Shown: positions 5,720-63,195, counted from the stretch's first letter. The stretch is 64,000 nucleotides of DNA from Acetobacteraceae bacterium (GCA_965276715.1 OZ255622.1:2534642-2598641); one strand, 5' to 3'. The notes: generated by a model not told the origin, from the letters alone. Program-made: numbers and translations.

Positions 5720-5794
<75 letters not shown>

Positions 5795-41995: not shown

Positions 41996-42061
41996 GGCAC
42001 CCGCTCGCGGCAGCGGCCGGGATGTTCGGGTTCGATGCATAATTCGTAGGCACATTTGGGC

Positions 42062-42090
42062 CTTGCCGGGCCGTGCGGCCTTCCATACAT
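42062..42090 (+). promoter_or_regulatory. candidate RpoH (sigma-32) heat-shock promoter of dnaKJ
   Basis: CTTG-N17-CCATACAT, located 120 nt upstream of the dnaK ATG. It resembles the alphaproteobacterial CTTG-N17-CC.AT.T consensus. Confidence 0.35.
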
Positions 42091-42209
42091 GCGAGCCTGT
42101 CATCCGGTCTCGTGAACGGTTGTCCAGAACCAGCCGGTCTGTTCCATGTCCATAGGGTCGCTTCCGGTGCTTCGGGCCGGTCGCCACCGCTGAAAGGAGT
42201 TTTTGCGCG

Positions 42210-44114
<1,905 letters not shown>

Positions 44115-44138
44115 GCCCGGTCGTTCAACGAGTGGTGG

Positions 44139-44162
44139 CGGGTCCGGTCGTGTCCGGACCCG
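44139..44162 (+). other. dnaK-dnaJ intercistronic stem-loop
   Basis: 9-bp stem cgggtccgg/ccggacccg with a 6-nt loop and no U tract. Confidence 0.35.
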
Positions 44163-44219
44163 TCACGCTGTCGCGATGAAAACGGATTGGTGCGGCCGCG
44201 AAACATGGGCAGCAACTGA

Positions 44220-45347
44220 ATGGCCAAGCAGGATTACTACGCCACGCTCGGCGTAGGCCGTGAGGCAAGTGCCGACGACCTCAAGAAGGCCTACCGCAAG
44301 CTCGCGATGCAGTTCCATCCGGACCGCAATCCCGGCGACACGCAGGCCGAGGCGCGCTTCAAGGAGGCCGGCGAGGCCTACGAGGTGCTCAAGGACGACA
44401 GCAAGCGCGCCGCCTATGACCGCTATGGCCATGCGGCCTTCGAGAGCGGCGGCGGTGCCGGAGGGTTCGAGTTCCAGGCCGGTGGCCTCGGCGACATCTT
44501 CGAGCAGATGTTCGGCGAGGCGCTCGGCGGCAGGCGGGGCGGCAAGGCGCGTTCGGGCCAGGACATCCGCACCCAGGTCGAGATCGAGCTGCCCGAGGCG
44601 TTCACCGGCATCAAGCTGCCGGTCAACGTTCCGACGCGGGTCGGTTGCGATCATTGCGCGGGGACCGGTTCGGAGACGAAGGATCGCGCCGGCGACAAGT
44701 GCCCGACCTGCGGCGGCGCCGGCAAGGTGCGAGCCCAGCAGGGCTTCTTTCTCGTCGAGCGCGCCTGTCCGACCTGCGGCGGCGCGGGCCGGGTCATCCG
44801 CAATCCCTGCACGGTCTGCCAGGGGGCCGGGACGGTCGCCAGGCAGCGCGAGCTGTCGGTCCAGATTCCGGCCGGCGTCGAGGACGGAACGCGGATCAGG
44901 CTCGCCGGCGAGGGCGAGGCGGGACCTCAGGGAGCGCCGCAAGGCGACCTCTATGTCCACGTCGCGATCCGGCCGCACGAACTGTTCCAGCGCGAGGGGG
45001 CCAACATCTTCTGCCGCGTGCCGATCAGGCTGACCCAGGCCGCGATCGGCGGGGAGGTCGAGGTTCCGGTGATCGACGGCTCCAGGACACGGGTGAAGGT
45101 GCCGTCCGGCACCCAGACCGGCGAGCAGTTCCGCCTGCGCGGCAAGGGGTTCTCGATCCTGCGGAGTGCGGCCCGCGGCGACATGTACATCCAGGTCGCG
45201 GTCGAGACGCCCCGGCACCTGACCAAGCGCCAGCGCGAGCTGCTCGAGGAGTTCGAGCGCGAGGCGTCGTCGCATCCGACCGGCAGTCCCGAGGCGGAAG
45301 GTTTCTTCGCGCGCATGCGGACCTTCTTCGACAGCAGGGCCGGGTAA
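44220..45347 (+). CDS. dnaJ: molecular chaperone DnaJ
   Basis: J domain (HPDRNPG), G/F region and four CxxCxGxG repeats. Confidence 0.95.
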
Positions 45348-45431
45348 AATCGGCGTGTGCGACGATGTTCTGTTGACTGTTGCGTTGAAACCACGCCCGG
45401 GTTGATCCATTATCGATTGGTCTCAGGCGCT

Positions 45432-45440
45432 CCCCCCCCC
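45432..45440. repeat. poly-C tract (C9), intergenic
   Basis: The sequence reads tccccccccc, between dnaJ and dapB. Confidence 0.9.
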
Positions 45441-45463
45441 AATGGCGTCTGGGATGACATGCA

Positions 45464-45500
45464 GGCGGCGCGATCCCCCAGGTCGCGCCGCCTTTACTTT
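45464..45500 (+). terminator. rho-independent terminator (dnaKJ operon)
   Basis: 10-bp GC stem ggcggcgcga/tcgcgccgcc followed by tttacttt. Confidence 0.55.
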
Positions 45501-45518
45501 GACGGTGGGTGAGGCGCT

Positions 45519-46259
45519 GTGAGGATCGGGATCGCCGGCATCACCGGCCGCGTCGGCCGGCTTCTGGCGGACCTGGTCGTCGAACGTGGCCACGCGCTGG
45601 CCGGCGGCACGGGCGGTTCGGCCGGCACGATCGAGGACCTCGCGCTTTCGTCCGACATCGTCATCGACTTCTCGCGCGCGAGTGCCGCCGTCCGGCATGC
45701 GTCCGCGCTCTCGGCCGCGGGGATCCCGTGGGTGCTCGGCACGACCGGGCTGGACGCGGAGGCCGCCTCCGCGGTCGATCGCGCCGCGCGCCGGATCGGC
45801 GTGATCCAGGCCGCGAACTTCTCTCCGGGCGTCGCCATCGTGACCGCGCTCGCCCGCCGGCTCGGCGCAGCGCTGACCGAAGCCGATTACGACGCCGAGA
45901 TCCTGGAGATGCACCACCGGGGCAAGCGTGACGCGCCGTCCGGCACGGCGCTCGCGATCGGCCGCGCGGTCGCCGATGGTCGCGGACGGACATTCGACGA
46001 TGTCGCGCGATTCTCGCGCGCCGGCCAGACCGTGCGGCCGTCCGGCGAGATCGGGTTCGCCGTCCAGCGGGGCGGCGGCATCGTGGGCGAGCACACGCTG
46101 TCGTTCACCGCCGCGAGCGAGCGGATCACGCTGCGCCACGAGGCCTTCGACCGCCGCGCGTTCGCCGATGGCGCCCTGCGCGCCGCCTGCTGGCTGGCCG
46201 GCAAGCCGCCTGGACGCTACGGGTTCGAGGAGGTTCTGGGCCTGGCCACGCAGCCTTGA
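45519..46259 (+). CDS. dapB: 4-hydroxy-tetrahydrodipicolinate reductase
   Basis: [13 protein letters not shown] (GTG start) and [15 protein letters not shown]. Confidence 0.9.
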
Positions 46260-46341
46260 CCCTGACGGCGGTTTCCGCCAAGCAACTGCCCCCCGACGGC
46301 CGTGCCCGTGGACTGGGGTTCAGGCCACCGAGGATCGATCA

Positions 46342-47520
46342 ATGCGCGAGAAGGGCAGCTACCTGTTCACGTCCGAGTCGGTCTCGGACGGGCATCCCGA
46401 CAAGGTGGCGGACCGGCTCAGCGACACGGTGCTCGACGCCTATCTCGCCGCCGATCCGGAAGCCCGCGTCGCCTGCGAAACGATGGTCACCACCAACCGG
46501 ATCATCCTGGCGGGCGAGGTGCGCGGGCCGGCGCACGTGATCGACAGCCTCGAGACGCTGGTGCGCGGGGCGATCCGCGACATCGGCTACGACCAGGACG
46601 GCTTCACCTGGCGGGATGCCACCAGCTTCGAGTGCCACCTGCACGCCCAGTCCCCCGACATCGCGATCGGCGTCGACGCGTCCGGCAACAAGGACGAGGG
46701 CGCGGGCGACCAGGGCATCATGTTCGGCCACGCCACCAACGAGACCGCGAGCCTGATGCCGGCGCCGATCCATTACGCGCACCGGATCCTGCAGGAGCTG
46801 CGCACGCTTCGCCTCGATGGCGGATCGCAACTGCAGCCGGATGCGAAGAGCCAGGTCACGCTGGCCTACGAGGATGGCCATCCGGTCCGCGCGAGCAGCG
46901 TTGTGGTCTCGACCCAGCATGACGAGGGCGCGCGGCAATCCGACATCCGCGCGGCCGTGGGCCGCGTCGTCCGCTCGGTCCTGCCGGAGGGCTGGATGTG
47001 CGGCGAGGAGGATTTCTACGTCAATCCGACCGGGGTGTTCGTCGTGGGCGGCCCCGACGGGGATTGCGGCCTGACCGGGCGCAAGATCATCGTCGACACC
47101 TACGGGGGGGCGGCCCCGCACGGCGGCGGGGCGTTCAGCGGCAAGGATCCGACCAAGGTGGACCGCTCGGCCGCCTATGCCTGCCGGTATCTGGCCAAGA
47201 ACGTGGTTGCCGCCGGTCTGGCGGACCGCTGCACGCTGCAGATCAGCTACGCGATCGGCGTCGCCCACCCGCTGTCGGTCTATGTGGATTTGCACGGGAC
47301 CGGTCATGACGTCGATGAGGCGAGGCTCGAGCATACAATGCGCGAGGTGCTCGATCTGTCGCCGCGGGGCATTCGCCGGCATCTGCGGCTGAACCGGCCG
47401 ATCTACGCGCCGTCGTCGGCCTACGGGCATTTCGGGCGGTCGCCCGACGACGGGCGCGACGATTTCACCTGGGAGCGGACCGATCTGGCCGAGACGCTCC
47501 GTGGCGCGTTTGGCAGGTAG
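46342..47520 (+). CDS. metK: S-adenosylmethionine synthase
   Basis: [22 protein letters not shown] and GGGAFSGKD. Confidence 0.95.
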
Positions 47521-48235
47521 GCAAGGCCAGGGGGCCGAGGCCGGCCCCCTGGACCCCCGGCTTTACGGGCGCCAGCGCGGGCATCGGTTGCGGGCCCGGC
47601 AACAGATGCTGCTCGATCGGACGCTGCCGCTGCTGCGGTTTGCGCTCGCGATGGCGCAATCGCCCCGGCAGGCGTTCGCGCGGCCGGTCGAGCGGTTGCG
47701 GTTCGAGGTCGGGTTCGGCGGCGGCGAGCACGCGGAGGCGATCGCGCGTGCGTGTCCGGACGACGGATTGATCGCGGCCGAGGTGTTCATCAACGGGATC
47801 TGCTCGCTGCTGTCGCGGCTCGCCCCGGAGGGTGCGGCACCGGAGGCCGGGTTGCCGGGCAATCTGCTTCTCTGGGACGGCGATGCGCGCACGCTGCTCC
47901 AGGCGCTGCCGGACCAGTGTCTCGACACGGTGTTCCTGATGTTTCCCGACCCCTGGCCGAAATCGCGCCATGCCAAGCGACGCTTCGTGGGACTTGCCAA
48001 CATCGACCTCGTCGCGCGCGTGCTCCGGCCCGGCGGGGAATGGCGGATCGCGAGCGATGACCCGACCTATCAGGAGTGGGTCCGGTCGGTGATGGCCGCA
48101 CAGGACAGGTTCACCCTCCTCGAGGAGGCGGCCGAGCGGCCGGCGGGCTGGCCGCCGACGCGCTACGAGGCCAAGGCGCGCCGAGCCGGCCGGACGCCGG
48201 TCTATTGGCGCTGCGAGAGGCGCGCCGCGGCCTAA
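47501..48235 (+). CDS. trmB: tRNA (guanine46-N7)-methyltransferase
   Basis: [20 protein letters not shown] and [15 protein letters not shown]. The GTG start overlaps the metK end. Confidence 0.85.
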
Positions 48236-48285
48236 AGCGAGGCCGGCTCTTGTCCGGGTCGGAAGCGGCGACGACTTCGTCGAGC

Positions 48286-49770
48286 ATGTCAGCTTCCCAG
48301 GCCGTGATCCCCCGCCTCCGGATCGACTTCGACAACCGGTATGCCCGGCTGCCGGACCGGTTCTTCGCGCGGGTCGCCCCGACGCCGGTCGCTTCACCGC
48401 GGCTGGTCAAGCTCAACCGCGCGCTCGCCGAGACGTTGTGCCTCGATCCGGAGGCGATGGCCGGGCCGGACGGTGTCGCGATGCTGGGCGGCAACGCCGT
48501 GCCGGACGGCGCGGAGCCGCTGGCGCTCGCCTATGCCGGCCACCAGTTCGGCAATTTCGTGCCGCAACTGGGCGACGGCCGCGCGATCCTGCTTGGCGAG
48601 GTGGTGGGCCGAGACGGGAAGCGCCGCGACATCCAGCTCAAGGGTTCGGGGCCGACGCCGTTCTCGCGGCACGCCGACGGGCGCGCGGCACTCGGGCCGG
48701 TGCTGCGCGAATACCTGGTCAGCGAGGCGATGGCGGCGCTCGGCGTGCCGACGACGAGGGCGCTGGCGGCGGTGACGACCGGCGAGGCCGTCAGGCGCGA
48801 GACGATGCTGCCGGGCGCGGTGCTGACGCGCGTCGCCGCGAGCCATCTCCGCATCGGCACGTTCCAGTTCTTCGCGGCCCGCGGCGATCTCGAGGCGGTC
48901 CGCGCGCTGGTGGACCACGCGATCGCCCGCCACTATCCCGACGCCGCGGACGCCCCGATTCCGGCGCTCGCGTTCCTGGGCGCGGTGATCGGGCGCCAGG
49001 CGGCGCTGGTCGCTCGATGGATGCTGCTTGGCTTCATCCACGGCGTGATGAACACCGACAATATTTCGATCTCGGGCGAGACCATCGACTACGGTCCGTG
49101 CGCGTTCATGGATTCCTATGATCCGGCGACCGTGTTCAGCTTCATCGACGAGGCCGGGCGCTACGCCTACGGCAACCAGCCGCGGGTGATGATGTGGAAC
49201 CTGGCACGGCTGGCGGAGACGTTGCTGCCGCTGCTCGACGGCGACGAGGAGCGGTCGGTGGAACTGGCGCAGGAGGCGCTCGCGGCTTTCCCGCGCCAGT
49301 ACGAGGCGGCCTATCTGAGCGGGATGCGTCGCAAGCTCGGCCTCGCCACCGAGGAGGACGGCGACGCGGCGCTGGCGGCCGACCTGCTGGACTGCATGCG
49401 GGCGAATAGCGCCGACTTCACGCTGACGTTTCGGAGGCTCGGCGGGCCGATTGGGGAGGCGAGATCGCTCTTCGACGCGCCGGCCAGGTTCGACGAATGG
49501 CTTGTGCGCTGGCGGCGTCGTCTCGACTCCGAACAGGCATCGCCCGAGGCGCGCCGTGAGGCGATGCGGGCCGTCAATCCCGCGATCATCCCCCGCAACC
49601 ATCTCGTCGAGGCAGCCCTGGCGGCGGCAGTCGAGAGTGAGGATTTCGGTCGGTTCGAGGCGCTGCTCGATGCCGTGTCGCGTCCCTACGAGGAGAGGGA
49701 AGAAGGGGATGCGCATGCCAATCCCCCTAGACCGGAGGACCGTGTCCGCAACACCTTCTGCGGGACCTGA
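48286..49770 (+). CDS. selO: protein adenylyltransferase SelO (YdiU)
   Basis: [31 protein letters not shown] and [10 protein letters not shown]. Confidence 0.9.
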
Positions 49771-49910
49771 GAGGCCGCACGCAAATTCGCGGGCTCGACC
49801 GCTCACGATTTGTTAGGGTCCGCGCGACGAAGGCGGAGGAAATCGTTCCGGGATGAGCACCACACCGGTCTGGGCCCCGTTTCACGGCCCGTTCGACGCC
49901 AGATCGCGTC

Positions 49911-50639
49911 TTGAGGCGTTCGTCTTGGCGACGCTTGGCCCGGACGTTGGCGTCGCGTGGCTGGCGGCGGGGCGATCTGTATCCGTTCCGCAAGCCGCGG
50001 TTCGACGGCGACGGGTTTGGTCAGTTGATTGTCGTCGAATGGCACCAGACGCCCACCGTTCCGAAGGTTCCCCGGGGGCTTGGAGAGCGGATCGAGCACT
50101 GGGTCGTTCGGGCTTTGAGCGATCAGGGGCGACAGCAGGTCGCAATCGGCGAAGGGATCATGGCGACGGGCAATGCCCTGCAACCGGTGTTACACAGGGC
50201 GTTCGGGACGGGGCGTGTGGGTGACACGGTCAGCGTCGGTCTCGATGTGGTCGCTGTTGGACTTTCCTTGAGTTTCACGAGCGGCGTGCTCGCACAGGCC
50301 GCATTCATCGGCGGCATGGTTTTGTTGATGACGGACGGCAGTGCTTGGGCCGCGGAGATGGCCGGCAACAACCGAATGGCCGAACGGATCAGAACAGTCA
50401 CCAGTATCCCGCGCTGGTTTGCCATCGCTACCTGCCTACCCGATGCGGGATGGGGCACGATCAAGGCGCTCCGCGAGCTTCCTGAGGTCATGCGTGCCAG
50501 CGCTCAAAGTTCCAGGACGGCGACACGGGGAATGGCGGACGCCGCGCGCGCGGCGCGGGCTGCCAGGAAGCGAGCCGGACGGGAATGCAAGCGGCTTACG
50601 CCAAGAAATACGCCGCGATCGCCGACCGCGCCCGGCTGA
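49911..50639 (+). CDS. hypothetical membrane protein X1 (start uncertain)
   Basis: The frame looks coding from about 49980. It has a Gly/Ala-rich TM region (VGLDVVAVGLSLSF..AAFIGGMVLLM). The only candidate starts are TTG at 49911 and ATG at 50160. The 3' end overlaps X2. Confidence 0.35.
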   Translation: MRRSSWRRLARTLASRGWRRGDLYPFRKPRFDGDGFGQLIVVEWHQTPTVPKVPRGLGERIEHWVVRALSDQGRQQVAIGEGIMATGNALQPVLHRAFGTGRVGDTVSVGLDVVAVGLSLSFTSGVLAQAAFIGGMVLLMTDGSAWAAEMAGNNRMAERIRTVTSIPRWFAIATCLPDAGWGTIKALRELPEVMRASAQSSRTATRGMADAARAARAARKRAGRECKRLTPRNTPRSPTAPG

Positions 50640-50818
50640 AGGTCGTCAAGGCAAGTGAAAAATTGCGCAGCATCTGGCTGCACGAGATCGCGCCGCGCGC
50701 CACGGTGCCGGCGAGCCTCGCCCTACTGCTCGACGATGAGCTTGACCCGCAGAACCATGCGATCGTCGCTCGGTTCCTACAGCAATACCGATTTCACATG
50801 ACCGTGGTGAATCGATGA
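50585..50818 (+). CDS. hypothetical protein X2 (77 aa; possibly the frameshifted C-terminus of X1)
   Basis: Coding-like codon usage. Overlaps the X1 end by 55 nt in another frame. ATGA overlaps the X3 start. Confidence 0.4.
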   Translation: MQAAYAKKYAAIADRARLKVVKASEKLRSIWLHEIAPRATVPASLALLLDDELDPQNHAIVARFLQQYRFHMTVVNR

Positions 50819-51297
50819 GCGCAGCTGAGAAGACGGGCGCGCCCAGCATGACGCTAAGCTTGTCCGAACGACGGGTTTTTCTTGTCGGAAGCGCTCTCCC
50901 ATCCGCCATGAACGCCTACGGGATCGTTGTTCCTGTCTTCCTGGCTGCTCGCTTGAACCTGGATTACTCCATTACTGGTGTGGCGGTCGTCGCGCTCACC
51001 ATGGGGTTGCTGATGGAATACGTGCGCCGCTACGGCGTGTGGACCAAGCGGCTCGAGCGTCGGCGCAACGCCTTTCGCATTGTGCGTGGATTGCTCTGGT
51101 CGCTGTTGCCGCTCACGGCCTCGTCGGTTGTGGCGTCCATCGCGGCGGTGACGAGCGGGTGTTTCGGGCAACGGTGCAGGTTGGGCGATTTCCCGAATGC
51201 GCTCGCGCTGATGGCTGTCGTCGGCGCGGTGGTCGCGGTGCTGTCGATGCCCGTCACCATCAAGGCGGCCGTGGCGCCGTGGCTGCGTAACGAATAG
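50815..51297 (+). CDS. hypothetical 4-TM membrane protein X3 (160 aa)
   Basis: Four hydrophobic segments. Its TAG stop is followed immediately by the ATG of the R-M gene. Confidence 0.55.
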   Translation: MSAAEKTGAPSMTLSLSERRVFLVGSALPSAMNAYGIVVPVFLAARLNLDYSITGVAVVALTMGLLMEYVRRYGVWTKRLERRRNAFRIVRGLLWSLLPLTASSVVASIAAVTSGCFGQRCRLGDFPNALALMAVVGAVVAVLSMPVTIKAAVAPWLRNE

Positions 51298-54200
51298 ATG
51301 ATCCAGGGCGGTCTGTTCACGCGTGACTTCCTCCTGGAGGGCGTCACGACCGAACCCGCTTGGCGGGCGCTGACCGACCTTCACGTGGCTGCCGCACGCG
51401 CTCGGCTCATTGCGTTGTCGACGCCGTTCGCGAGCCAGCGTGAGCCCAACGAGGCCGAGACCGAGGCGCAACTGATCTTTCCCGCACTCGAGGATGTGCT
51501 GGATTGGCCTGACTGGCTGCCGCAACAGAACCAGTCCGCCTCCGGCCGGTCGGACGTGCCCGATGCGCTGCTGTTCGCCGATGCGGAGACACTGTCTCGC
51601 GCGCGGGCCGAGCCGGCATGGCAGCGATTTCAGCGAGGCTTGTGCCTCGTCGAGTCGAAGCGCTGGAACCGGCCGCTCGACCGTCCGGCGGACGCGCGCG
51701 GCAAACGGGGGGCCGAAGACGACTTTCCCTCGGCGCAAATCCTCCATTACCTGCGGCGCGCCGACGCGATCACCAGGGGCACGCTGCGCTGGGGCATCCT
51801 GACCAACGGCAGGCTCTGGCGGCTTTATTGGCAAGGCGCGGTTTCGGTCTCGGAGGACTTTCTCGAGATCGATCTCGGCAAGATGCTCGGGCTTCCCGGA
51901 TGCGAACCGGACCTGCTCGATGCGCGCGGTGTCGCGCCCGACCACGCGATGCGCCTGTTCCTGCTGCTGTTCGGCCGCGCGGCGTTCCTTCCCTACGAGC
52001 AGGGCCGCACCTTTCACGCCATCGCGCTCGAGCAGGGCAAGCGGTGGGAAGAGAAGGTCGCGCGCGATCTCTCGCGGGTGGTGTTCGACCAGGTGTTCCC
52101 CGTCCTGGCGCGCGCGCTGGGACGCCATGATCGGGCGCGTCCGACCGAACCGTCGGCGGCTTGGCTGGAGCTGGTCCGGACGAGCACGCTGATCCTGCTC
52201 TATCGGCTTCTGTTCGTCCTTTACGCCGAGGACCGGGACCTGCTGCCCGACGAAAGCGGGCCGTACGCGGACTACTCGCTGACGCGCATCCGGCGCGAGG
52301 TCGCCCAAGCGCGGGCCGCCGGCAAGGCCGCGTCGCCACGCGCCGCGATCTACTGGGCGCGACTGCGCGGCATCTTTGCCGCTGTGGCGCACGGCGACGA
52401 CGGGCTCGGCATTCCGCCCTACAATGGAGGCCTGTTCGAGCCCGACGCGGCGCCGTTGCTCGACCGCGTCGAGCTGCCGGACGCGGTGGTGGCCGAGATC
52501 GTGTTCGCGCTGTCCCACATCGAGAGCGAGCGCGGTCCCAAATACGTCAACTACCGCGATCTCTCGGTCCAGCAACTCGGCTCGGTATATGAGCGCATCC
52601 TGGAGTTCGGCCTGCGGCTCGGCGAGGACGGCGAGATCGCGGTGGATCGTGATGACGACGAGCGCCACGACACCGGCAGCTACTACACGCCGGAGGCACT
52701 GGTCTCGTTGATTATCGAACGCGTAGTGGGGCCGGCGGTGGCGGGGCGTTCAAAGGCGTTCGAAGCTGCGGCCGCCCGGCTGGCCACTGATCGGCGGCCG
52801 GTTGCGACCCGGTTGGCGGAGCTTGCCAAGTATGATCCCGCGTCGAAGCTGCTCGAATTGAGGGTCTGCGATCCGGCGATGGGTTCGGGGCACTTCCTGG
52901 TCAGTCTTGTCGACTGGCTTGCCACCCGCGTGTTGGCGGCGATTGCCGAGGCATCGGCGCAGGTGGGTTGGGGGGTTTATGGCTCGCCGCTACTGGGGCG
53001 CGTGGCCAGCGTGCGCGAGCGCATCCTGTCGGAAGCGAAAATCCACGGCTGGCCGGTGCTGCCCGAGCAGCTCGACGACCGGCATGTCGTCCGGCGGATG
53101 ATCCTCAAGCGCGTGGTGCATGGGGTCGACAAGAACCCGATGGCGGTCGAGCTCGCCAAGGTGTCGCTGTGGCTGCACACGTTCACGGTCGGCGCGCCGC
53201 TGTCGTTCCTCGACCACCATCTGCGCTGCGGCGACAGCATCGTGGGCGCATGGGTCGCGTCTACCCTGGATGCGGTGGCGCAAGGCGGCGGGCTGCTGGC
53301 CCGCGGCGAGATCGCGCGGGTCGAGCACATCGCCGGCGAGATGACCAAGATCGAGGAGATCACCGATAACGATGTCGCCGAGGTGAAGGCGTCCATGCAC
53401 GCGTTCGGCGCAATCGCGGACACGACGCGCGAGCTCGATGCGTTCTTTTCGCTGATGACAGCCCGGCCGGCGCTCGGCATCGACCTCGACCCGAAACTCA
53501 AGCCGCCCCGGGCGAGCCCGCGCCAGTTGCGCGCCGCCGGCGCCGATGCGGGCAGGATCGCGACCGCCGCCAAACAGCAGCTTGCCTATGATCGGGCGGC
53601 CGCCTTCAAGGCGGTGCTCGGCGGACAATACGGCGACCCGCTGACGCTCGCTTCGGGCGCGCTGGTCATCGACACGCCGGATGAGGATTCCGACCAGTCG
53701 CTGCTCGTCGAGGTCGGCGAGGCGATGGACCGGCGCCGTCGCGCGGCGTCGCTCCTGTCGGATGCGCGGTCGCTGACCGCGCGCGAGCGGTTCCTGCACT
53801 GGCAGATCGCTTTCCCCAATATCTGGCGGCATCTGACTTACGCCGCGCCGGACGGCGGCTTCGACGCGGTGATCGGCAACCCGCCGTATGTGCGTCAGGA
53901 GCGGTTGGCCGGCGGTCAAGCCGGCGCTGCAAGCGGGATACGGCACGTTCGCGGGCACCGCCGATCTATATGTCTATTTCTTCGAGCAGGGTCTGCGCCT
54001 GGTCAAGCCGGGCGGCCGGGTCGCCTACGTCGTGACGAACAAGTGGCTGAAAGCGGGCTATGCCGAAGGTCTGCGGGCGATGCTGGTCGACCCCGCGCGC
54101 GCCGAGACGGAGGCGGTGATCGATTTCGGGCATGCGCGCGCGTTCTTTCCGGACGCGGACGTGTTCCCGAACGTCGTGGTCGTTCGTCGGCCGGGCGAGG

Positions 54201-55417
54201 AGGCCGCGCCCGATACCCTTACGGTCGCGGTTCCGCCGCGCGACACGCTGCCTGACGATCGCCTGGGTGCGGCGGTGGCGGCGGCGAGCTTCTCGATCGC
54301 GCGCTCGTCGTTCAGCCGCGACGGCTGGACGCTGGAGCCCAAGCCGGTGATGGATCTGCTCGCCAAGATCAAGCGCGCGGGCGTGCCGCTGGTGGAATAC
54401 GCCGGGGTAAAGCCGTACCGAGGAGTGCTGACTGGCTACAACGAGGCGTTTCTGATCGACACATCCACCCGCGATCGTTTGGTCGCCGACGACCCCGCCA
54501 GCGCGGAGATCGTCAGGCCTTATCTTCGCGGTCAGGACATTCAGCGATGGGGTGCCGATTGGGCAGGGCTCTGGATGATTTTCACTCGGCGAGGAGTAGA
54601 TATCGAGCGCTTTCCGTCGGTGCTCGGGCACCTTGAAAGGTTCAGAGTTGGGCTTGAGCCAAAATCGGATTCTTGGAGACCGAAGAACTCGAAGGACGAA
54701 TGGCCCGGACGCAAGTCGGGAAACTATGCCTGGTATGAGATTCAGGATTCGGTCGAGTACTGGAAGGAGTTTCAGAAACCGAAGATCATTTATCAAGAGA
54801 TCCAGTTTTATCCCAGCTATGCCTTTGACACTTCGGGCAGGTTTGGAAACAACAAGACCTTCATCCTGCCAACGGATGATCTTTCATTACTCGCAACACT
54901 CAACTCGCCACTGATGTGGTGGCGCAATTGGCGCGCTCTTCCTCATCTAAAGGACGAGGCGCTTTCGCCGATGGGTTATTTGGTCGAAAACTTCCCGATC
55001 GCTGTGTCGAAGGACAGCGCCGCGCATGTCGAACGGCTGATCACGTCGACCACGTCGATCCGAGCCGCGGCGTTGGCCATTCACGATTGGCTTCGCATGG
55101 AGTTCGGCCTTGAACGGCCCGGGCGTGCGCTGGAAGCGCCCGAGCGTCTGGACGCGGACGGGTTCGCGGCCGCGGTCCGCGCCGCGCTGCCGCGCAAGCG
55201 TCAGCTTTCCGCTGCCGAGATCGCGCGGCTCAAGCGCGAGCATCGCGAAACGATCCAGCCGGCCCGCGACGCCAGCGCGGAAGTGCTGCGGCTGGAGCGC
55301 CGGATTTCCGATCTCGTGAACGCGGCCTACGGGCTGACGCCCGAGGACGTCGCCTTGATGTGGTCGACCGCGCCGCCGCGTACGCCGCTCGCGCCGTCGG
55401 CTCCCCATGAGCCGTGA
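51298..55417 (+). pseudogene. type IIG restriction-modification enzyme (PD-ExK nuclease, gamma-class N6-adenine MTase and TaqI_C-like TRD), disrupted by a 1-nt frameshift
   Basis: The N-terminal part has PDALLF...VESKRW and LTNGRLWRLY. Motif I is RVCDPAMGSGHFLV and motif IV is VIGNPPYVRQE. The frame changes near 53908-53917 and the sequence continues as KPALQAGYGTFAGTADLYVYFFEQGLRLVKPGGRVAYVVTNKWL in the 53888-55417 ORF. Confidence 0.8.
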
Positions 55418-55470
55418 AACTACCAAGCTGTCAGCCGCGAAGGCGAGATGGCTGCTCCCCGCGAGCGTCG

Positions 55471-56040
55471 TTACTTGCGGTCGTCGCGATCACAGCTTGG
55501 CCTCCCGTCCGATCGGCAGGTTTCGGCGGCATCCTGGATCAGGGCATGAACCTCGCTGGTGCGCGGCAACGCCGCCAGAACCGCCGGCGTGCAGTGCCCG
55601 CCGGCATCGTCGATGCGGTTAGCCAGTTCGATCGAGGTGTGGCCGATGAAGTATTCGGAGTAATGCCCGGCCAGCTTGGTCAGGATCGCGCAGTAGGCGC
55701 GGTGGCGCGGCCTGTGCGCCAGCAGGTCGCCCTGGAGCGCCTCGTCTGCCGCACGGGCCGGATCGGCGGTCTGAGGCACATGCGCCATGGTGCCAGGGAC
55801 GTCGCGGCGAAAGATGATCATGAAAGCGCGGGCGACGTCGCGCACTGCGGCGCACTTCTCGGTGCCGCACCCGCCGGCAGTGCGGTTCGCGTCACCCACC
55901 TCATCCCAGGTCGCGGGGCCGTTCAGAATACCAGCGTAAGGATCGGGGGCCGCAGCGGCGGGTGCCATGACCGCGAGGGCCGCGGCCAGAACGGATGCGC
56001 TCCTAGTGTCCCGATTGGCAATTGCTGACCAGGAAGTCAT
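55471..56040 (-). CDS. secreted Cys-rich hypothetical protein; 5' end rebuilt by the IS630 insertion
   Basis: Signal peptide ..RSASVLAAALAVMAPAAAA. The first 12 codons (56040-56006) are IS-derived. The original ATG and 3 codons lie at 57194-57185, across the IS. Confidence 0.55.
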   Translation of the reverse strand: MTSWSAIANRDTRSASVLAAALAVMAPAAAAPDPYAGILNGPATWDEVGDANRTAGGCGTEKCAAVRDVARAFMIIFRRDVPGTMAHVPQTADPARAADEALQGDLLAHRPRHRAYCAILTKLAGHYSEYFIGHTSIELANRIDDAGGHCTPAVLAALPRTSEVHALIQDAAETCRSDGRPSCDRDDRK

Positions 56041-57184
56041 GCAGCCGTGGTTTCGGTAAGCGCGACGCGTGCTCGTTTGATTTTTGCGAGGATTTCGGCG
56101 CCCGTGGCTTTCCAGACGTATGGCTTTGGATCGGCATTGCGCACGGCGAGATAGGCTTTGATGTCACGGACCAGTTCGTTGACCGACGTGAAGCTGCCGA
56201 CACGGATCACGTCGCCGGTTAGGTCGGCGAAGAAGCGCTCGACCAGATTGAGCCACGAGGACGAGGTCGGCGTGAAGTGCATGTGGAAACGAGGGTGTCT
56301 GCCCAGCCACGCCCGCACATTGGGATGTTTATGGGTGGCGTAGTTGTCCGCGATCAGATGCAGATCGACGTCGGACGGCGTCTCGCGATCAATCTGCTTG
56401 AGGAAACGCAGCCATTCGACATGCGTGTGGCTCGCCTCGGTGCGGCTGATCAGCTTTCCGGTCAACTGGCTGAGGGCTGCGAACAGTGTGATCGTGCCAT
56501 GCCTGACGTAGTCGTGCGTCATCGTGGGCGGGCGCTTCGGCGCCAGCGGGAGGCCCAGTTGCGTGCGTTCGAGCGCCTGGCATTGGCTTTTCTCGTCGCA
56601 GCACAGCACCAGCGCCTTCGCGGGCGGATTGAGATACAGCCCGATGACGTCCCAGAACTTCTCCTCGAATTTCGGATCGTTCGACAGCTTGAAGGTCCTC
56701 AGACGATGTGGCTTGAGGTCGTTCCTCGACCACAGGCGCTGGACCGAACTCGCGGAGACCCCGGCGTGACGGCTCATCGACCGCAGGCTCCAGCGGCGTC
56801 TACCCTTCGGCGGACGGGTCGCTTCGGTCAGCACGCGTGCCACTTTCACCTCCGGGATCGAAGCCTTGCGGCCACGACCCGGTCGATCATCCAGCCCCGC
56901 AAGACCGAACCTCTCGAACCGCCTCGACCACGTCGAGACGCGCTTGGGCGTCGTATTCAGCCGCTCGGCGACGGCTTCAACCCCGACGCCGTCGAGCCGA
57001 AGCAGGATGATGTCGGCACGCTCGCGCTCCCGCACGTCGACGATGGCCGACCGCGACCGGCGTCGAAGCTCCGTGACAGCGCCAGGTTCAGCACGCAGTC
57101 GCTTGATCGGTCGTCCCATCAAGGCATTTCTCCCGAAACTCTCACGATCAGGAGATATTAGTCGGCAATTGCGGAGCAGGACAC
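56006..57184 (-). mobile_element. IS630-family insertion sequence (1179 bp) with TA target duplication at a CTAG site
   Basis: Terminal inverted repeats are gtgtcccgattggcaattgc (56006-) and gtgtcctgctccgcaattgc (reverse complement of -57184). TA lies at 56004-56005 and at 57185-57186. The element carries a single transposase ORF. Confidence 0.85.
56037..57119 (-). CDS. IS630-family (DDE_3) transposase
   Basis: HTH region, LVLCCDEKSQCQALERTQ, HLIADNYATHKH and FTPTSSSWLNLVERFF. Start at MGRPIKR, inside the IS boundary. Confidence 0.85.
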   Translation of the reverse strand: MGRPIKRLRAEPGAVTELRRRSRSAIVDVRERERADIILLRLDGVGVEAVAERLNTTPKRVSTWSRRFERFGLAGLDDRPGRGRKASIPEVKVARVLTEATRPPKGRRRWSLRSMSRHAGVSASSVQRLWSRNDLKPHRLRTFKLSNDPKFEEKFWDVIGLYLNPPAKALVLCCDEKSQCQALERTQLGLPLAPKRPPTMTHDYVRHGTITLFAALSQLTGKLISRTEASHTHVEWLRFLKQIDRETPSDVDLHLIADNYATHKHPNVRAWLGRHPRFHMHFTPTSSSWLNLVERFFADLTGDVIRVGSFTSVNELVRDIKAYLAVRNADPKPYVWKATGAEILAKIKRARVALTETTAA

Positions 57185-57267
57185 TAGTGGACATGGCCAA
57201 CCGGCACTTGCCTGACTTGCAAAAAGAGAAAGATGGAGAAATCCAGCCGCGACCGTTCTGAAAAAGT

Positions 57268-57528
57268 TCAGTTGATTTTCTCGAAAGCCCAGATCGCTAC
57301 GCCGCCCATGATGATAATGAGCACTCCGAGCGCAGCCATGCCAACCCGCACCGGCGTAGCCTGCGAGGGGATCGCGGCAGACGCCACGATCGGCCCGGAA
57401 ATCAGAAGGGTGATCCCGCATCCGAGCATAGATCTGTTCAAGATGATTATGCCGACGAAGAAAACGAGGAAGCCGCCAGCGAAGATGTATCGCGACGCTT
57501 TAGACGGCGAGGGGCTGCTGTAGCTCAC
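57268..57528 (-). CDS. small multi-TM membrane protein (partner B of the module)
   Basis: 86 aa with about 3 TM segments. Overlaps the 3' end of 57500-58132. Counterpart of 5206-5496. Confidence 0.55.
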   Translation of the reverse strand: MSYSSPSPSKASRYIFAGGFLVFFVGIIILNRSMLGCGITLLISGPIVASAAIPSQATPVRVGMAALGVLIIIMGGVAIWAFEKIN

Positions 57529-58132
57529 GTGATCTCATTCCTGCTTCGCGCTCATAGACCGATTTCAGTGCCGGAAGCTTCGCCTTGAAGGAGGCGTTCT
57601 CGAGCACGTTTTCGACTTTCTCGCTAAGGGTATCGGCACCGCTCACGGCGGCAAAGATTACCCCAGCGCCAGCAAGCGGCGGTGCAACCAACTTCGACAC
57701 CAGACCGGCAAGCGAGGTCACCCCGAGCAACGGCGCAATCCATTCGCAGAGGGTTGAAAGCCGAATGCGATCATCAGCAAGCGTGGCCGGCTTGCGACCG
57801 GTATCGATCGCCGCTTTCGCTTCAATGAATTCCGAGTTCGACAGGCACCATGGGTGCTCATACGCCCGGATCGGGTCCACGGCAGTTCCGCTGCCGGTCC
57901 CATACATCCCTGCCCTCTTGCTCTCAAGCTCACGCCAGAAAGCGGCGTCCGAGCCGAAGGGATAGCTCTTTCCGGCTTTATCGAAAATCAGCTTGCCCCA
58001 GCTGTTGCGGACGGACACTGGCAGGAAGCGCCAAGTTACGAGAACCCCGATGCCCTGAGCCCGCGTTCTGTCGGCACCCACAAGGCTCGGATTGATGCCG
58101 ACCCGCTCCGCCCATTCCGTCGTCAAAAGCAT
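57500..58132 (-). CDS. hypothetical HPWC-motif protein with central Gly/Ala-rich hydrophobic segment (partner A of the module)
   Basis: 210 aa starting at MLLTTEW, with GAGGGG 8 nt upstream. About 55% identical to the restored 4633-5261 product. No family recognised. Confidence 0.6.
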   Translation of the reverse strand: MLLTTEWAERVGINPSLVGADRTRAQGIGVLVTWRFLPVSVRNSWGKLIFDKAGKSYPFGSDAAFWRELESKRAGMYGTGSGTAVDPIRAYEHPWCLSNSEFIEAKAAIDTGRKPATLADDRIRLSTLCEWIAPLLGVTSLAGLVSKLVAPPLAGAGVIFAAVSGADTLSEKVENVLENASFKAKLPALKSVYEREAGMRSRELQQPLAV

Positions 58133-58257
58133 ATGCCGTCCCCCTCGCATAAACGTCTGTATCATCGCTCGGGCCGATTTCAGATCGCCTCACGCGAGAG
58201 GACGAGGGACTTTATGTCGGTGTCGGACTCCAATGAGCATTGGGTTACGGCGGGTTT

Positions 58258-58310
58258 GGGGGCGCCTGCCCCCAACGGGGTGCGGGGCAGCGCCCCGCTG
58301 CTTCGACTTT
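58258..58310 (+). repeat. REP-like double hairpin (copy 2)
   Basis: gggggc-gcct-gccccc followed by gcggggc-agc-gccccgc. See 37378-37430. Confidence 0.5.
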
Positions 58311-58315
58311 CGCGC

Positions 58316-59284
58316 TCAGTGCACTACCACCGGCAGTGCGGTGTCGGCGTCGCGGATGGCGATCGGCGTCATGCCGGCCGGGTCGCCGTCGGCCTGGGCC
58401 GGCTGGGTGCCGCCGAGGATCTCGATCCGCGCGGCGCGCACGAGTTCCAGGCTGTGCGCGCGCCCGAGGCGGTCGAGCACCAGGGCGGCACCGTAGCCGA
58501 GGGCGGCTCGGGCACCGCTGTGGCGGAACAGGGCCACCGAGAAGCCGGGCTCCGAGCAGCGCGCCTGTGGGGCCAGCGTGTAGGCGCCGCCGTAGAAGCG
58601 GCCCTTGCTGACGACGACGCTGGCCGCCTCGGTGGCGATTCCGTCCAGGGTGACGCGGATCGGCAGGTAGTCGTAGCGGCCGATCTCGCGCAGCGTCTGC
58701 AGCGTGTAGGCCTGACGCCCGATGGCGCGCTTGAGCCGGTGGCTGACCCGATGGACGACCTGCGCGTCGAGGCCGACGCCGAGCATCTGGACGAATACGC
58801 GGTCACCGTTGGTGCCCTCGGCGACGCCTGGCCAGAGTGTGCGGGTGCGGCCGAAGGCGAGTGCCGCCGCGATCGCCTTCGCGTGATGCGGCAGGCCCAG
58901 CTCGTGGGAGAGCACGTTCGCGGTGCCGAGCGGAATGATGCCGAGCGAGGATGTGCTGCCGAGGAGACCCGCCGCGACCTCGGCGATGGTGCCGTCGCCG
59001 CCCGCGGCCACGACGATGCGCTCGTTGGTGCCGGCGGCCTCGCGTGCGAGCAGGGTCGCATGGCCGGCCGATTGCGTCTCGGCGATTCGCGGCTGCAGGC
59101 CGTTGGCGATCAGCACGTCGACGACCCGCCAGAGGGCCGCGATCCGACGTCGTCCGGCGATCGGATTGTAGATGATGACCACGTGCGGTGACGGCTCGAT
59201 CCATGACTGGGGCCGAACGGCTCGGCGCCGCATCGGGCATTGGAGCCGACTGTAGGAAGGTCGGCCGACGGCGGCTTGTGACAT
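58316..59284 (-). CDS. diacylglycerol-kinase-family lipid kinase (YegS/BmrU-like)
   Basis: VVIIYNPIAGRRR and AAGGDGTI. The start is uncertain (59284 or 59233). Confidence 0.75.
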   Translation of the reverse strand: MSQAAVGRPSYSRLQCPMRRRAVRPQSWIEPSPHVVIIYNPIAGRRRIAALWRVVDVLIANGLQPRIAETQSAGHATLLAREAAGTNERIVVAAGGDGTIAEVAAGLLGSTSSLGIIPLGTANVLSHELGLPHHAKAIAAALAFGRTRTLWPGVAEGTNGDRVFVQMLGVGLDAQVVHRVSHRLKRAIGRQAYTLQTLREIGRYDYLPIRVTLDGIATEAASVVVSKGRFYGGAYTLAPQARCSEPGFSVALFRHSGARAALGYGAALVLDRLGRAHSLELVRAARIEILGGTQPAQADGDPAGMTPIAIRDADTALPVVVH

Positions 59285-59402
59285 CTCCGAGACAGAAAAG
59301 TAACGGAAGATCTAACGCCGCGGTACAGACGTCATGTAAGATTCACATGGACATGTTACGGAATTGTCTATCAGGGCCGCGCCAAAGGAATGAGCGTGCC
59401 GC

Positions 59403-60260
59403 ATGAACGCGAGTCTCTCATTGCCGCTGCCGCTCGCTTCGGCCGCGTCCCGCGCCGTCTCGCCACAGGCCTTGCGTTTCCGGAGCGTGTTCATCTCGGA
59501 CGTCCATCTGGGCTCGCGCGGCGCGCGCTGCGACTTCCTCGCCGATTTCCTGCGCCGGATGTCGTGCGAGAACCTGTTCCTCGTGGGCGACATCATCGAT
59601 GGCTGGAAGCTGAGGAAGTCCTGGCACTGGGACGCGGCGCATGACGAGGTGTTGCGCCTGATCCTCAGCCACGCCCGGCGTGGGGCCGAGGTCACCTACA
59701 TTCCCGGCAACCACGACGAGATGTTCCGAAGCTGGCTCGGACTCGGGCTCGAGGTCGGCGGGATCAAGTTGCGGTCGCAGGCGGAGCATCTCACCGCCGA
59801 CGGCAAGCGGATCCTGGTCATGCATGGCGACGAATTCGACAGCGTCGTGCGCTACGCCAAGTTCCTCGCCTATCTCGGCGACTGGGCGTACGGCGTGGCG
59901 CTGGAGGCGAACCGCGTGTTCAACGCGCTGCGCCGCCGGCTCGGCTATTCCTACTGGTCGCTGTCGGCCTGGCTGAAGCGGCAGGTCAAGGAGGCCGTCA
60001 AGGCGATCGACCGCTTCGAGACCGCGCTCGCCGACGAAGCCAGGCAGCGTGGTTTCGACGGGGTGGTGTGCGGTCATATCCATCACGCCGAGATGCGGGA
60101 GGTGCACGGTGTGCGCTACATGAACGACGGCGACTGGGTGGAGAGCTGCACGGCGTTGGTGGAGCACCATGACGGCCGCTTCGAGCTGCTGGAATGGGCG
60201 GCGCTCAACGAATTCTCGTTCGCGGCACCGCGTGGCGCGATGGTGGCCGAACCTGTCTGA
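59403..60260 (+). CDS. UDP-2,3-diacylglucosamine diphosphatase-like metallophosphoesterase (LpxH family)
   Basis: FISDVHLGSRG, LVGDIIDGWKL, IPGNHDE and CGHIHH. Confidence 0.75.
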   Translation: MNASLSLPLPLASAASRAVSPQALRFRSVFISDVHLGSRGARCDFLADFLRRMSCENLFLVGDIIDGWKLRKSWHWDAAHDEVLRLILSHARRGAEVTYIPGNHDEMFRSWLGLGLEVGGIKLRSQAEHLTADGKRILVMHGDEFDSVVRYAKFLAYLGDWAYGVALEANRVFNALRRRLGYSYWSLSAWLKRQVKEAVKAIDRFETALADEARQRGFDGVVCGHIHHAEMREVHGVRYMNDGDWVESCTALVEHHDGRFELLEWAALNEFSFAAPRGAMVAEPV

Positions 60261-61374
60261 CCTGCCCGGCGACCACGCTCTCGGCCGTAGCGGATACCGA
60301 AGCCTCCGCGTTCTCGTCATCTCGGATGCCTGGCATCCGCAGGTGAACGGTGTGGTGCGCACGCTGGGCACCGTCACGCGGCTGCTCAACGAAGCCGGTC
60401 ACACGGCGACCGTGATCGGGCCCGACCAGTTCCGCACCGTGCCGTGCCCGACCTATCCCGATATCCGCCTCGCGGTCCTGCCGGGACGCAAGCTCAGGCG
60501 GCTGATCGACGGGTTTCGTCCGGACGCGCTGCATATCGCGACCGAGGGTCCGCTCGGCATGGCGGCACGCGGGCTCGCGATCAAGCGCGGCTGGCGCTTC
60601 AGCACCGCGTTCCACACGCGGTTTCCGGAATATGTGCAGGCGCGGATCCGGCTTCCCGCCGCGCTCAGCTACGCCTGGCTGCGCCGGTTCCACAACGCGG
60701 GCGAAGGCATCATGGTGGCGACCGCGAGCCTGAGCGAGGAACTCGCCCGGCGCGGCTACCGCAACATCAGGCCCTGGTCGCGCGGCGTGGATGTCGGACT
60801 GTTCAAGCCGGTGCCCGCCGATCCGTTCGAGGGGCTCGCGCGGCCGGTGTTCGTGTGCATCGGCCGGGTCGCGGTCGAGAAGAACATCCGCGCCTTCCTG
60901 TCGCTCGATCTGCCCGGCTCGAAGGTCGTGGTGGGTGACGGGCCGCAGCGCGCGACGCTGGAGCGCGAGTTCCCGGACGTGCGCTTCACCGGTGCCCGCT
61001 ACGGCGAGGAACTCTCCGCCTCGTACGCGGGAGCCGACGTGTTCGTCTTTCCGTCGGTGACCGACACGTTCGGGCTGGTGATGCTGGAGAGCCTGGCCTG
61101 CGGCACGCCGGTCGCGGCGTTTCCGGTCACGGGACCGGCCGACCTGCTCGCCGAGGCGCCGGTCGGGCGTGTCGACACCGACTTGCGACGCGCGGCGCTC
61201 GGCGCGCTCGAGGTCGACCGGGCGCTGTGCCGGCCGTTCGCCGAGATGCATTCCTGGCAGGCCTGCGCGCAGCTGTTCCTGAGCCACCTGGTTCCGGTGG
61301 CGGGTGCGCGGCGTTTCCAGCCGATGCCGATGCCGATCCTGGAGCGGGACGTGCTCGCCGAGGCGGCGGATTAG
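60232..61374 (+). CDS. glycosyltransferase family 4 (GT-B) protein
   Basis: LRVLVISDAWHPQVNGVVRTL and VFPSVTDTFGLVMLESLACGTPV. The GTG start at 60232 is inferred and there is no in-frame ATG nearby. Confidence 0.7.
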   Translation: MARWWPNLSDLPGDHALGRSGYRSLRVLVISDAWHPQVNGVVRTLGTVTRLLNEAGHTATVIGPDQFRTVPCPTYPDIRLAVLPGRKLRRLIDGFRPDALHIATEGPLGMAARGLAIKRGWRFSTAFHTRFPEYVQARIRLPAALSYAWLRRFHNAGEGIMVATASLSEELARRGYRNIRPWSRGVDVGLFKPVPADPFEGLARPVFVCIGRVAVEKNIRAFLSLDLPGSKVVVGDGPQRATLEREFPDVRFTGARYGEELSASYAGADVFVFPSVTDTFGLVMLESLACGTPVAAFPVTGPADLLAEAPVGRVDTDLRRAALGALEVDRALCRPFAEMHSWQACAQLFLSHLVPVAGARRFQPMPMPILERDVLAEAAD

Positions 61375-61431
61375 GTCGGGGCGCTCCCGAGCCTTGCCTT
61401 CGCTGCTGTCCGAAGGCAAAGCCGCTGGCTG

Positions 61432-61986
61432 ATGTTCATCGTCCTCGCCTACCTGATCGGATCGATCCCGTTCGGATTGCTGCTGACCCGGGCCGCCGGG
61501 CTGGGCGATATCCGCAAGGTGGGCTCGGGCAATATCGGCGCGACCAACGTGCTGCGGACCGGGCACAAGGGGCTGGCCGCGGCGACGCTGCTGCTCGACG
61601 GCCTGAAAGGCTTCGCCGCCGTCGCGATCGCGACCGAAGCGGGATGGGCCGCGATCGCGGTGGTGGTCGGGCATTGTTTTCCGGTCTGGCTGCGGTTTCG
61701 CGGCGGCAAGGGGGTCGCGACCGGCCTGGGGGCGCTCTACGGGCTCGACTGGCGGGTGGGCGCCCTCGCGTGCGCGGTCTGGCTGGCGCTCGCGGTGCTG
61801 ACCCGGCGTTCGTCGGCGGGTGCGCTCGGGGCGTTCCTCGCGTCCCCGGCGATCGCTGTCCTGCTCCATTCGCACGCGCCGGTCTGGGCGCCGGCCGCGA
61901 TCGCGGTGCTGGTGTGGGTCCGCCACCGCGCCAATATCGGCAGGCTGCTCGCCGGCACCGAGCCCGCGATCGGCGGGCGCGGGTGA
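61432..61986 (+). CDS. plsY: glycerol-3-phosphate acyltransferase PlsY
   Basis: YLIGSIPFGLLL and GSGNIGATNVLRTG. Confidence 0.9.
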   Translation: MFIVLAYLIGSIPFGLLLTRAAGLGDIRKVGSGNIGATNVLRTGHKGLAAATLLLDGLKGFAAVAIATEAGWAAIAVVVGHCFPVWLRFRGGKGVATGLGALYGLDWRVGALACAVWLALAVLTRRSSAGALGAFLASPAIAVLLHSHAPVWAPAAIAVLVWVRHRANIGRLLAGTEPAIGGRG

Positions 61987-63080: not shown

Positions 63081-63195
63081 CGTTCCTCGGGTTGGTCCAT
63101 GTCGGCCGCGCCATTGACGCGCGACCCGGCCACTGCCAGTTCTCCGCGTCCCTCGTGGCAATGCGGGGATCACCAAAAAAGGTCGGTGTCAACGT

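Follow-up and report, generated by a model that had tools for sequence, protein, structure and literature searches.

The window analysed here is a 64,000-nt stretch of DNA from an Acetobacteraceae bacterium (GCA_965276715.1 OZ255622.1:2534642-2598641), to which all coordinates refer and which has a GC content of ~70%. On its + strand, just downstream of the selO stop codon at 49770, a block begins that consists of three small open reading frames (ORFs), X1, X2 and X3, followed by a large restriction-modification (R-M) gene. We consider it likely that this locus is a solitary type IIG gene in decay, acquired horizontally together with an idiosyncratic leader of orphan ORFs. The initial annotation had proposed a candidate composite defence locus that could contain a new accessory layer. 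The data do not support this: X2 and X3 are free of homologues, the linkage is missing from all 80 loci that encode R-M relatives, X1 is probably not a gene and the R-M gene is frameshifted. Its own fallback, a chance juxtaposition, came closer, as an idiosyncratic juxtaposition fits the data better than a composite system does. A mechanical ORF list gives five relevant + strand ORFs downstream of selO, namely X1, X2, X3 and two overlapping large ORFs, which correspond to the following features (codon scores, in bits per codon, are explained below; GC1, GC2 and GC3 are the GC fractions at the three codon positions).

49911-50639, + strand: X1, a mechanical ORF of 242 amino acids (aa) when read from TTG, with its first ATG at 50160
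50585-50818, + strand: X2, 77 aa, codon score 0.415, GC1/2/3 0.68/0.39/0.77
50815-51297, + strand: X3, 160 aa, codon score 0.187, GC1/2/3 0.61/0.51/0.79
51298-53910, + strand: N-terminal part of the R-M gene, with a PD-(D/E)XK motif, a helical spacer and methylase motifs I (DPAMGSGHF) and IV (NPPY)
~53908-53912, + strand: +1 frameshift, ~5 codons past NPPY, in the context GCCGGCGG, with no simple-sequence tract
53912-55417, + strand: C-terminal part of the R-M gene, with the rest of the methylase domain and a TaqI_C target-recognition domain (TRD)

Identity and frameshift of the large gene

The sequence supports the large gene as an Eco57I/TaqI_C-type single-chain nuclease-methylase-TRD enzyme, i.e. 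type IIG. The fused architecture had been recognised in the initial annotation and is borne out by the Pfam Eco57I and TaqI_C domains, the PADLOC type IIG models and a PD...ExK motif. The Eco57I profile (PF07669) is matched on both halves at 52.4 and 46.4 bits (cut-off 25.3), with E-values of 8.6e-14 for the N-terminal part and 6.1e-12 for the C-terminal part, the latter over profile positions 95-171, and the C-terminal part also carries TaqI_C (PF12950) at 28.7 bits (cut-off 26.5; 1.8e-6). The top PADLOC profile for the N-terminal two-thirds is DrmMI (PDLC02643, 276 bits, 1.6e-82); of the REase_MTase_IIG models, PDLC03613 aligns with residues 51-702 and PDLC03596 matches the C-terminal part at 170 bits. 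When the first 250 residues were aligned with nine relatives of 45-74% identity, P88-D89 and E119-S-K121 were invariant, and this conserved P88-D89...E119-x-K121 arrangement argues for a nuclease-methylase fusion. The motifs DPAMGSGHF and GNPPYV are both present in the repaired protein. By sequence, its solved relatives are TaqI-like adenine methylases only, matched weakly over the methylase core, and, to our knowledge, the solved type IIG structures have no sequence match to the R-M protein. The family ranges over Alpha-, Beta- and Gammaproteobacteria, Planctomycetes and others, and its plasmid members are annotated as 'Eco57I restriction-modification methylase domain-containing protein' or 'restriction endonuclease'.

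The start of the gene is fixed at 51298, because its N-terminus, MIQGGLFTRD, is kept as a conserved M-I-Q-GGLFTRD start in close relatives whose start is resolved. The R-M gene is in frame with X3, and we considered a single ORF interrupted by a TAG nonsense or readthrough codon; this candidate was rejected, since the close relatives with a resolved start begin at M/V/L-(I/L)-x-GGLFTRD. No Shine-Dalgarno sequence precedes the R-M ATG (taacgaaTAGATG), whereas a GGAG-like site precedes the start in most relatives.

The gene had been described as one frame of 1373 codons. As sequenced, it is split into two overlapping ORFs, 51298-54255 (985 aa) and 53888-55417 (509 aa), and a protein of 1372 aa is obtained only once one base near 53911 is deleted. 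At the frameshift, frame 1 reads ...GNPPYVRQERLAGGQAG... and continues out of frame as NPPYVRQERLAGGQAG... until 54255, while frame 2 reads ...WPAVKPALQAGYGTFAGTADLYVYFFEQG... and picks up the Eco57I profile from position 95 of 171. The three type IIG modules are thus not contained in a single uninterrupted frame, and what gene callers recorded is the 985-aa fragment. With its R-M gene frameshifted, the locus as sequenced is no working R-M system, and the gene is probably decaying or inactive in this form. In four relatives (L009, L010, L014 and L051) the frame is likewise in pieces; as these are metagenome-assembled genomes (MAGs), real decay and assembly indel errors are indistinguishable in them.

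Compared with known systems, the gene resembles type IIG Eco57I/TaqI_C enzymes in its PD...ExK nuclease, gamma-class N6-adenine methylase, TaqI_C domain and length of ~1370 aa, and in being a solitary gene in a variable island. It differs from them in the +1 frameshift after NPPY, in having no Shine-Dalgarno sequence and in the orphan ORF that abuts it upstream. Class 1 DISARM DrmMI is similar in size and methylase core and, as noted, provides the top PADLOC profile for the N-terminal two-thirds, yet no gene resembling DrmA, DrmB, DrmC or DrmD lies in the insertion that holds the block or in its flanks. The flanks consist of selO, orf189, IS630, orf86, orf221 and a lipid kinase gene, and no island ORF besides the R-M gene has a PADLOC match. 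DISARM was accordingly rejected: DrmMI is the best PADLOC match, but the partner genes (drmA helicase, drmB DUF1998, drmC PLD and drmD SNF2) are missing and the nuclease motif is conserved. Pfam detected a helicase domain in 0 of 10 scanned neighbours of close R-M relatives; among the plasmid relatives, L084 adjoins a PLD gene and L082 a gene for a helicase C-terminal domain. A BREX PglX was rejected as well, as the best NCBIfam match, BREX_6_MTaseX, reaches 61.5 bits against a cut-off of 900, and neither PADLOC, Pfam nor NCBIfam finds a BREX partner (PglZ, BrxC) among the ORFs in or beside the insertion.

The strain-specific insertion

The window was compared by blastn with one other genome, L081, a 44-kb metagenome contig found through its homologue of orf189. 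The contig shares the gene order dnaK-dnaJ-dapB-metK-trmB-selO ... lipid kinase-metallophosphatase-glycosyltransferase-plsY-dprA and aligns with window segments 41862-49777, 55459-56008 and 58250-64000 at 92.4-92.8% nucleotide identity. The gap between the first two segments is the insertion.

49778-55458, no strand assigned: insertion of 5681 bp here, as opposed to 62 bp in L081, between selO and orf189

The difference between 5681 and 62 bp marks this segment as one strain-specific insertion. It starts 8 nt past the selO stop codon and ends ~40 nt past the R-M stop codon, the right edge being placed to within ~20 nt on either side, and its content is exactly X1, X2, X3 and the R-M gene. The comparison thus supports a single physical unit of acquired DNA that comprises X1-X3 and the R-M gene. 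At its ends we found no target-site duplication, terminal inverted repeat, integrase or nearby tRNA; a 10-nt inverted match ~100 nt inside the left end is the sole repeat seen. The position downstream of selO in a block of lower GC, as given in the initial annotation, is confirmed by the coordinates and by GC fractions of 0.65 for X1, 0.61 for X2, 0.63 for X3 and 0.68 for the N-terminal part of the R-M gene, compared with 0.70 for selO and 0.72 for the lipid kinase gene. Both GC and GC3 of the block are below those of the flanking genes and its codon usage is atypical, and the lower GC and atypical codon usage fit a horizontal acquisition of the insertion. A 5.7-kb block would thus have entered the spacer between selO and orf189 with the type IIG R-M gene as its sole recognisable gene; ahead of this gene it would have brought ~0.8 kb without a convincing coding signal (X1) and then X2 and X3.

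R-M genes, including those of type IIG, are often indels that carry hypothetical genes when related genomes are compared (Furuta, Abe and Kobayashi 2010, PMC2853133). The present locus is like those mobile R-M indels in that an R-M gene and hypothetical ORFs are absent from the relative's site, that the flanks are conserved and that frameshifted copies are common among them; it differs in showing no long target duplication, flanking repeats, integrase or tRNA target.

The three small ORFs and their coupling to the R-M gene

To judge the small ORFs, we derived a codon-usage model from 27 confidently identified genes of the window and used it to score every ORF in its six possible frames. Because of the GC content of ~70%, long chance ORFs occur everywhere in the window, and 136 ORFs of 40 aa or more are found in 16 kb. 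X1 does no better than chance and is probably not a gene. Its codon-usage score is -0.14 to -0.03 bits per codon and is equalled by an antisense frame, its GC by codon position is not coding-like, and it overlaps X2 by 55 nt. In no form is it present in a collection of 15 billion proteins in which X2, X3 and the 985-aa R-M fragment are present; as the homology search did not return even a self-match, X1 has been called by no gene caller. Pfam, PADLOC, NCBIfam and PHROGs gave no family match for X1, and the other frames of this stretch have no Pfam match and the stretch itself no Rfam match. It had been described as rich in transmembrane (TM) segments, and this has to be withdrawn, as hydropathy predicts only one. 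The GC3 of frame 2 climbs ahead of the X2 ATG and the tail of X1 is rich in Arg and Ala; X1 and X2 as one frameshifted gene would be a minor possibility, and neither part has homologues.

For X2 and X3, we think it probable that they are genuine genes or were so until recently. Spurious ORFs of the window reach a codon score of 0.368 at most, with a 95th percentile of 0.205, so that X2 tops every one of them; for comparison, the N-terminal part of the R-M gene scores 0.48 and the IS630 transposase gene 0.23. X2 and X3 each score clearly higher in their own frame than in the other five; both show a coding-like three-base periodicity with the highest GC at the third codon position and are recorded, like the 985-aa fragment, as called genes in the 15-billion-protein collection.

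It is unlikely, though by no means negligible as a reading, that the whole X1-X3 leader is non-functional, X2 and X3 being chance or decayed ORFs and their overlaps coincidental. The abundance of chance ORFs and the missing coding signal of X1 would fit such a leader, as would an X3 score within the range of spurious ORFs, the orphan status of all three, the decay of the adjoining R-M gene and the fact that in 6 of 58 relatives an ORF likewise ends within 12 nt of the R-M start. However, the X2 score exceeds the spurious maximum, X2 and X3 both have their own frame as the best of six with GC3 > GC1 > GC2, and both were called by independent gene callers. In addition, we estimate that in non-coding DNA an open frame of 160 codons ending exactly at the R-M start would have a chance of ~1% per frame (assuming ~2.8% stops at 63% GC). 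We therefore keep X2 and X3 as probable genes of an orphan leader. An antisense ORF of 604 aa at 50854-52668 on the - strand spans X3 together with the first third of the R-M gene; with a GC1 of 0.83 and a GC3 of 0.71, it is a shadow ORF of the GC-rich coding strand and not a gene.

X3 has three clear hydrophobic segments (residues 52-70, 94-112 and 129-147) and one weaker one, suggesting 3-4 TM segments; of the four TM segments first assigned to it, three stand and the fourth is only weak. X2 has no hydrophobic TM segment and is predicted to be all-helical and soluble. AlphaFold models from the single sequences are poor, with a predicted local distance difference test score (pLDDT) of 52 and a predicted template modelling score (pTM) of 0.28 for X3, and a pLDDT of 62 and pTM of 0.40 for X2. 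In size, X2 resembles controller (C) proteins, encoded by small genes coupled upstream of restriction genes, and it likewise sits upstream in tight packing. It differs from them in that the membrane ORF X3 lies between X2 and the R-M gene and that X2 has no homologues. As no helix-turn-helix (HTH)/Xre domain was found with Pfam or NCBIfam (E up to 0.1), X2 was rejected as a C protein.

X2 and X3 are true orphans, restricted as far as their sequences tell to one lineage. Against 5.8 billion clusters, the sole match of X3 is X3 itself and that of X2 is X2 itself, as a singleton cluster; an exhaustive phmmer search with X3 of 1.84 billion representatives of ~15 billion proteins also returned only X3. 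Pfam, PADLOC, NCBIfam and PHROGs (E up to 0.1) gave sub-threshold noise for both, pattern scans of metagenome and viral contigs gave nothing, no counterpart of the 1.5 kb upstream was detected by blastn among 72,556 plasmids, and a search for contigs encoding X3 returned none. The possibility that the region derives from a known gene in another frame or on the other strand was rejected, as 12 alternative-frame ORFs have no Pfam match and the region has no Rfam match. Nor is there similarity between X1-X3 and the other island orphans, orf189, orf86 and orf221. The initial annotation had recognised none of X1-X3, and this holds: no family matches any of them, X2 and X3 match only themselves and X1 matches nothing. 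When PADLOC was applied, as had been suggested for a new defence locus, X1-X3 had no matches and those obtained were limited to the R-M gene.

One could also view X2 and X3 as a toxin/immunity-like or addiction cassette that hitch-hikes beside the R-M gene and has no link to restriction, which we regard as highly improbable. Such a cassette would be matched by the two-gene layout, in which the gene for a small soluble protein overlaps in ATGA with a downstream gene for a small protein with several TM segments, and by the island context, in which orf221 and orf86 form a pair of soluble and small TM protein in the neighbouring block, with a paralogous copy at 4576-5496. Against it, no toxin, antitoxin, immunity, holin or Abi family is matched, X2 and X3 are not similar to orf221 and orf86, and they have no homologues in which co-occurrence could be seen.

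The spacing of the small ORFs is tight. X2 and X3 overlap in ATGA at 50815-50818, and the TAG of X3 (51295-51297) directly abuts the R-M ATG at 51298 with zero spacer; both junctions, as first described, are seen in the sequence. Of the single operon that had been proposed for the whole block, the packing of X2, X3 and the R-M gene is indeed operon-like, but X1 drops out as probably no gene. X2, X3 and the R-M gene would probably form one transcript. A sigma-70 promoter scan returned no sites and is uninformative for an organism this GC-rich, and terminator-like matches inside X3 are weak. Ribosomes that stop at the X3 TAG may reinitiate at the R-M ATG; with no Shine-Dalgarno sequence at this ATG, R-M translation would rely mainly on such reinitiation and may thus depend mainly on X3. 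Coupling of this kind would be an expression relation between X3 and the R-M gene and would not amount to a functional partnership.

R-M relatives and neighbouring elements

If X2 and X3 belonged to a recurrent defence system, X-like genes would be expected beside relatives of the R-M gene, as the initial annotation had envisaged for X3-like genes upstream of Eco57I/TaqI_C methylases. Searching one genome per species (GTDB) yielded 80 loci whose R-M relatives show 38-74% identity; most of these loci come with several kb of flanking sequence. Against them, tblastn with X1, X2 and X3 gave noise only (E at least 0.2), and blastn with the upstream region gave nothing. The 6 of 58 loci in which a same-strand ORF of at least 77 aa ends within 12 nt of the R-M start have no X3 homologue there, and the candidates among them that pass a GC3 filter have no predicted TM segment. 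An X-like gene or a tightly packed small membrane ORF upstream of the R-M relative was found at 0 of 80 loci, so that the envisaged recurrence was not seen. Since X1-X3 have no homologues at all, the lack of conserved linkage with R-M genes takes its strongest form. In L001, the closest relative (74%), the 1.3 kb upstream are unrelated DNA, with a Peptidase_U49 fragment on the opposite strand, and the neighbours of the R-M relatives on both the upstream and the downstream side differ from locus to locus, including TIR-domain, PolB-exonuclease-like, AidB, Fic, ATPase, PLD and further methylase genes.

These results make it very unlikely that the locus is a composite defence operon in which X2 and X3, as membrane sensor, effector or regulator, are accessories translationally coupled to the type IIG enzyme. 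Such an operon would account for the ATGA overlap and the TAG-ATG junction, the coding-like composition of X2 and X3, their location with the R-M gene in one strain-specific insertion, and an R-M gene without its own Shine-Dalgarno sequence. Yet X2 and X3 have no homologue, neither X-like nor analogous membrane ORFs occur at any of the 80 relative loci, and the R-M relatives exist in many contexts without X2 and X3 and with their own ribosome-binding sites. The R-M gene is moreover frameshifted, the X ORFs have no PADLOC match, and a one-off arrangement gives no comparative evidence of selection for linkage. Co-occurrence of accessory genes across unrelated genomes, the PADLOC/DefenseFinder-type sign of a system, was not found. 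As the tight spacing is a one-off and not a conserved architecture, we do not list the locus as a candidate new defence system. A role of X2 or X3 in defence is unsupported, and we regard them as idiosyncratic cargo or leader genes of one island, not as recurrent defence components.

We would give little credence to a further variant, in which X2 and X3 are a young lineage-specific leader or membrane module and R-M synthesis is obligatorily coupled to translation of the small membrane protein through termination and reinitiation at TAG-ATG. If it were true, gating by X2 and X3 could, for instance, postpone or restrain nuclease synthesis once the island has reached a new host, which would be a previously undescribed control of a single-chain R-M enzyme; its novelty would be modest, and it has no comparative support.

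Several points weigh against the reading of a decaying solitary type IIG gene with an orphan leader. The frameshift comes from one assembly, and a sequencing error could be its cause, in which case the R-M gene would be intact. The empty site is known from L081 alone, which leaves deletion in the L081 lineage as a formal possibility, although the composition and the patchy taxonomic spread of the R-M relatives favour insertion. The codon score of X3 falls short of the spurious-ORF 95th percentile, so that X3 is a probable gene, not a proven one. It is from spacing alone that co-transcription and coupling are suggested. Finally, missing homologues cannot prove that X2 and X3 are without function. 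We nevertheless favour the decaying solitary gene; on this reading the locus is another case of a solitary type IIG gene, probably inactive, that sits on a small strain-specific island, the kind of island in which orphan ORFs like X2 and X3 are common.

Beyond the right end of the insertion, two features of the - strand follow.

55471-56040, - strand: orf189, a core-genome flank gene convergent with the R-M gene and outside the insertion
56003-57187, - strand: IS630-family element with a 387-aa transposase (NCBIfam transpos_IS630, 245.8 bits)

No family match was found for orf189; its homologue P0005 (180 aa, same 90%-identity cluster) adjoins selO in L081. At its 5' end, orf189 now extends into the IS630 element, which has imperfect terminal inverted repeats of 27 nt at 56003-56029 and 57161-57187 and is absent from L081. 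The element belongs to a second strain-specific block at 56009-58249 with IS630, orf86 and orf221, in place of which L081 has a SleB-like Hydrolase_2 gene. Neither orf221 nor orf86 has a match in any family library. For orf221 (57500-58165, - strand), a 52%-identical and apparently frameshifted paralogue lies at 4576-5261 on the + strand; it is followed by a small TM-rich ORF at 5092-5496, like orf86 (57268-57528, 3 TM segments), and this copy at 4576-5496 adjoins a tRNA-Thr gene (5720-5794). The segments 4576-5496 and 57268-58165 (- strand) look like a repeated cassette encoding a soluble protein of ~220 aa and a small membrane protein.

Among the R-M relatives, L001, a Rhodospirillales MAG (74% R-M identity), and L003, a Hydrogenophaga MAG (51%), have a downstream same-strand gene for ~310 aa (5454-6389 in L001 and 5855-6778 in L003). 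The two copies are 60% identical to each other and match the PADLOC candidate PDC-S14 at 212 bits; the window lacks this gene, which may recur as a neighbour in some part of the R-M family. Two plasmid relatives of ~45% identity, L084 (Pannonibacter plasmid p.BB_2) and L083 (Celeribacter plasmid pP73C), lie in operon-like arrays. In L084, genes for a 7-cyano-7-deazaguanine synthase, an HTH protein and a hypothetical protein are upstream, and one for a PLD protein with a weak DrmC-like match is downstream; in L083, a Fic protein gene is upstream, and a gene for a 667-aa ATP-binding protein overlaps the stop codon of the R-M relative. Some branches of the R-M family may thus work in multi-gene systems.

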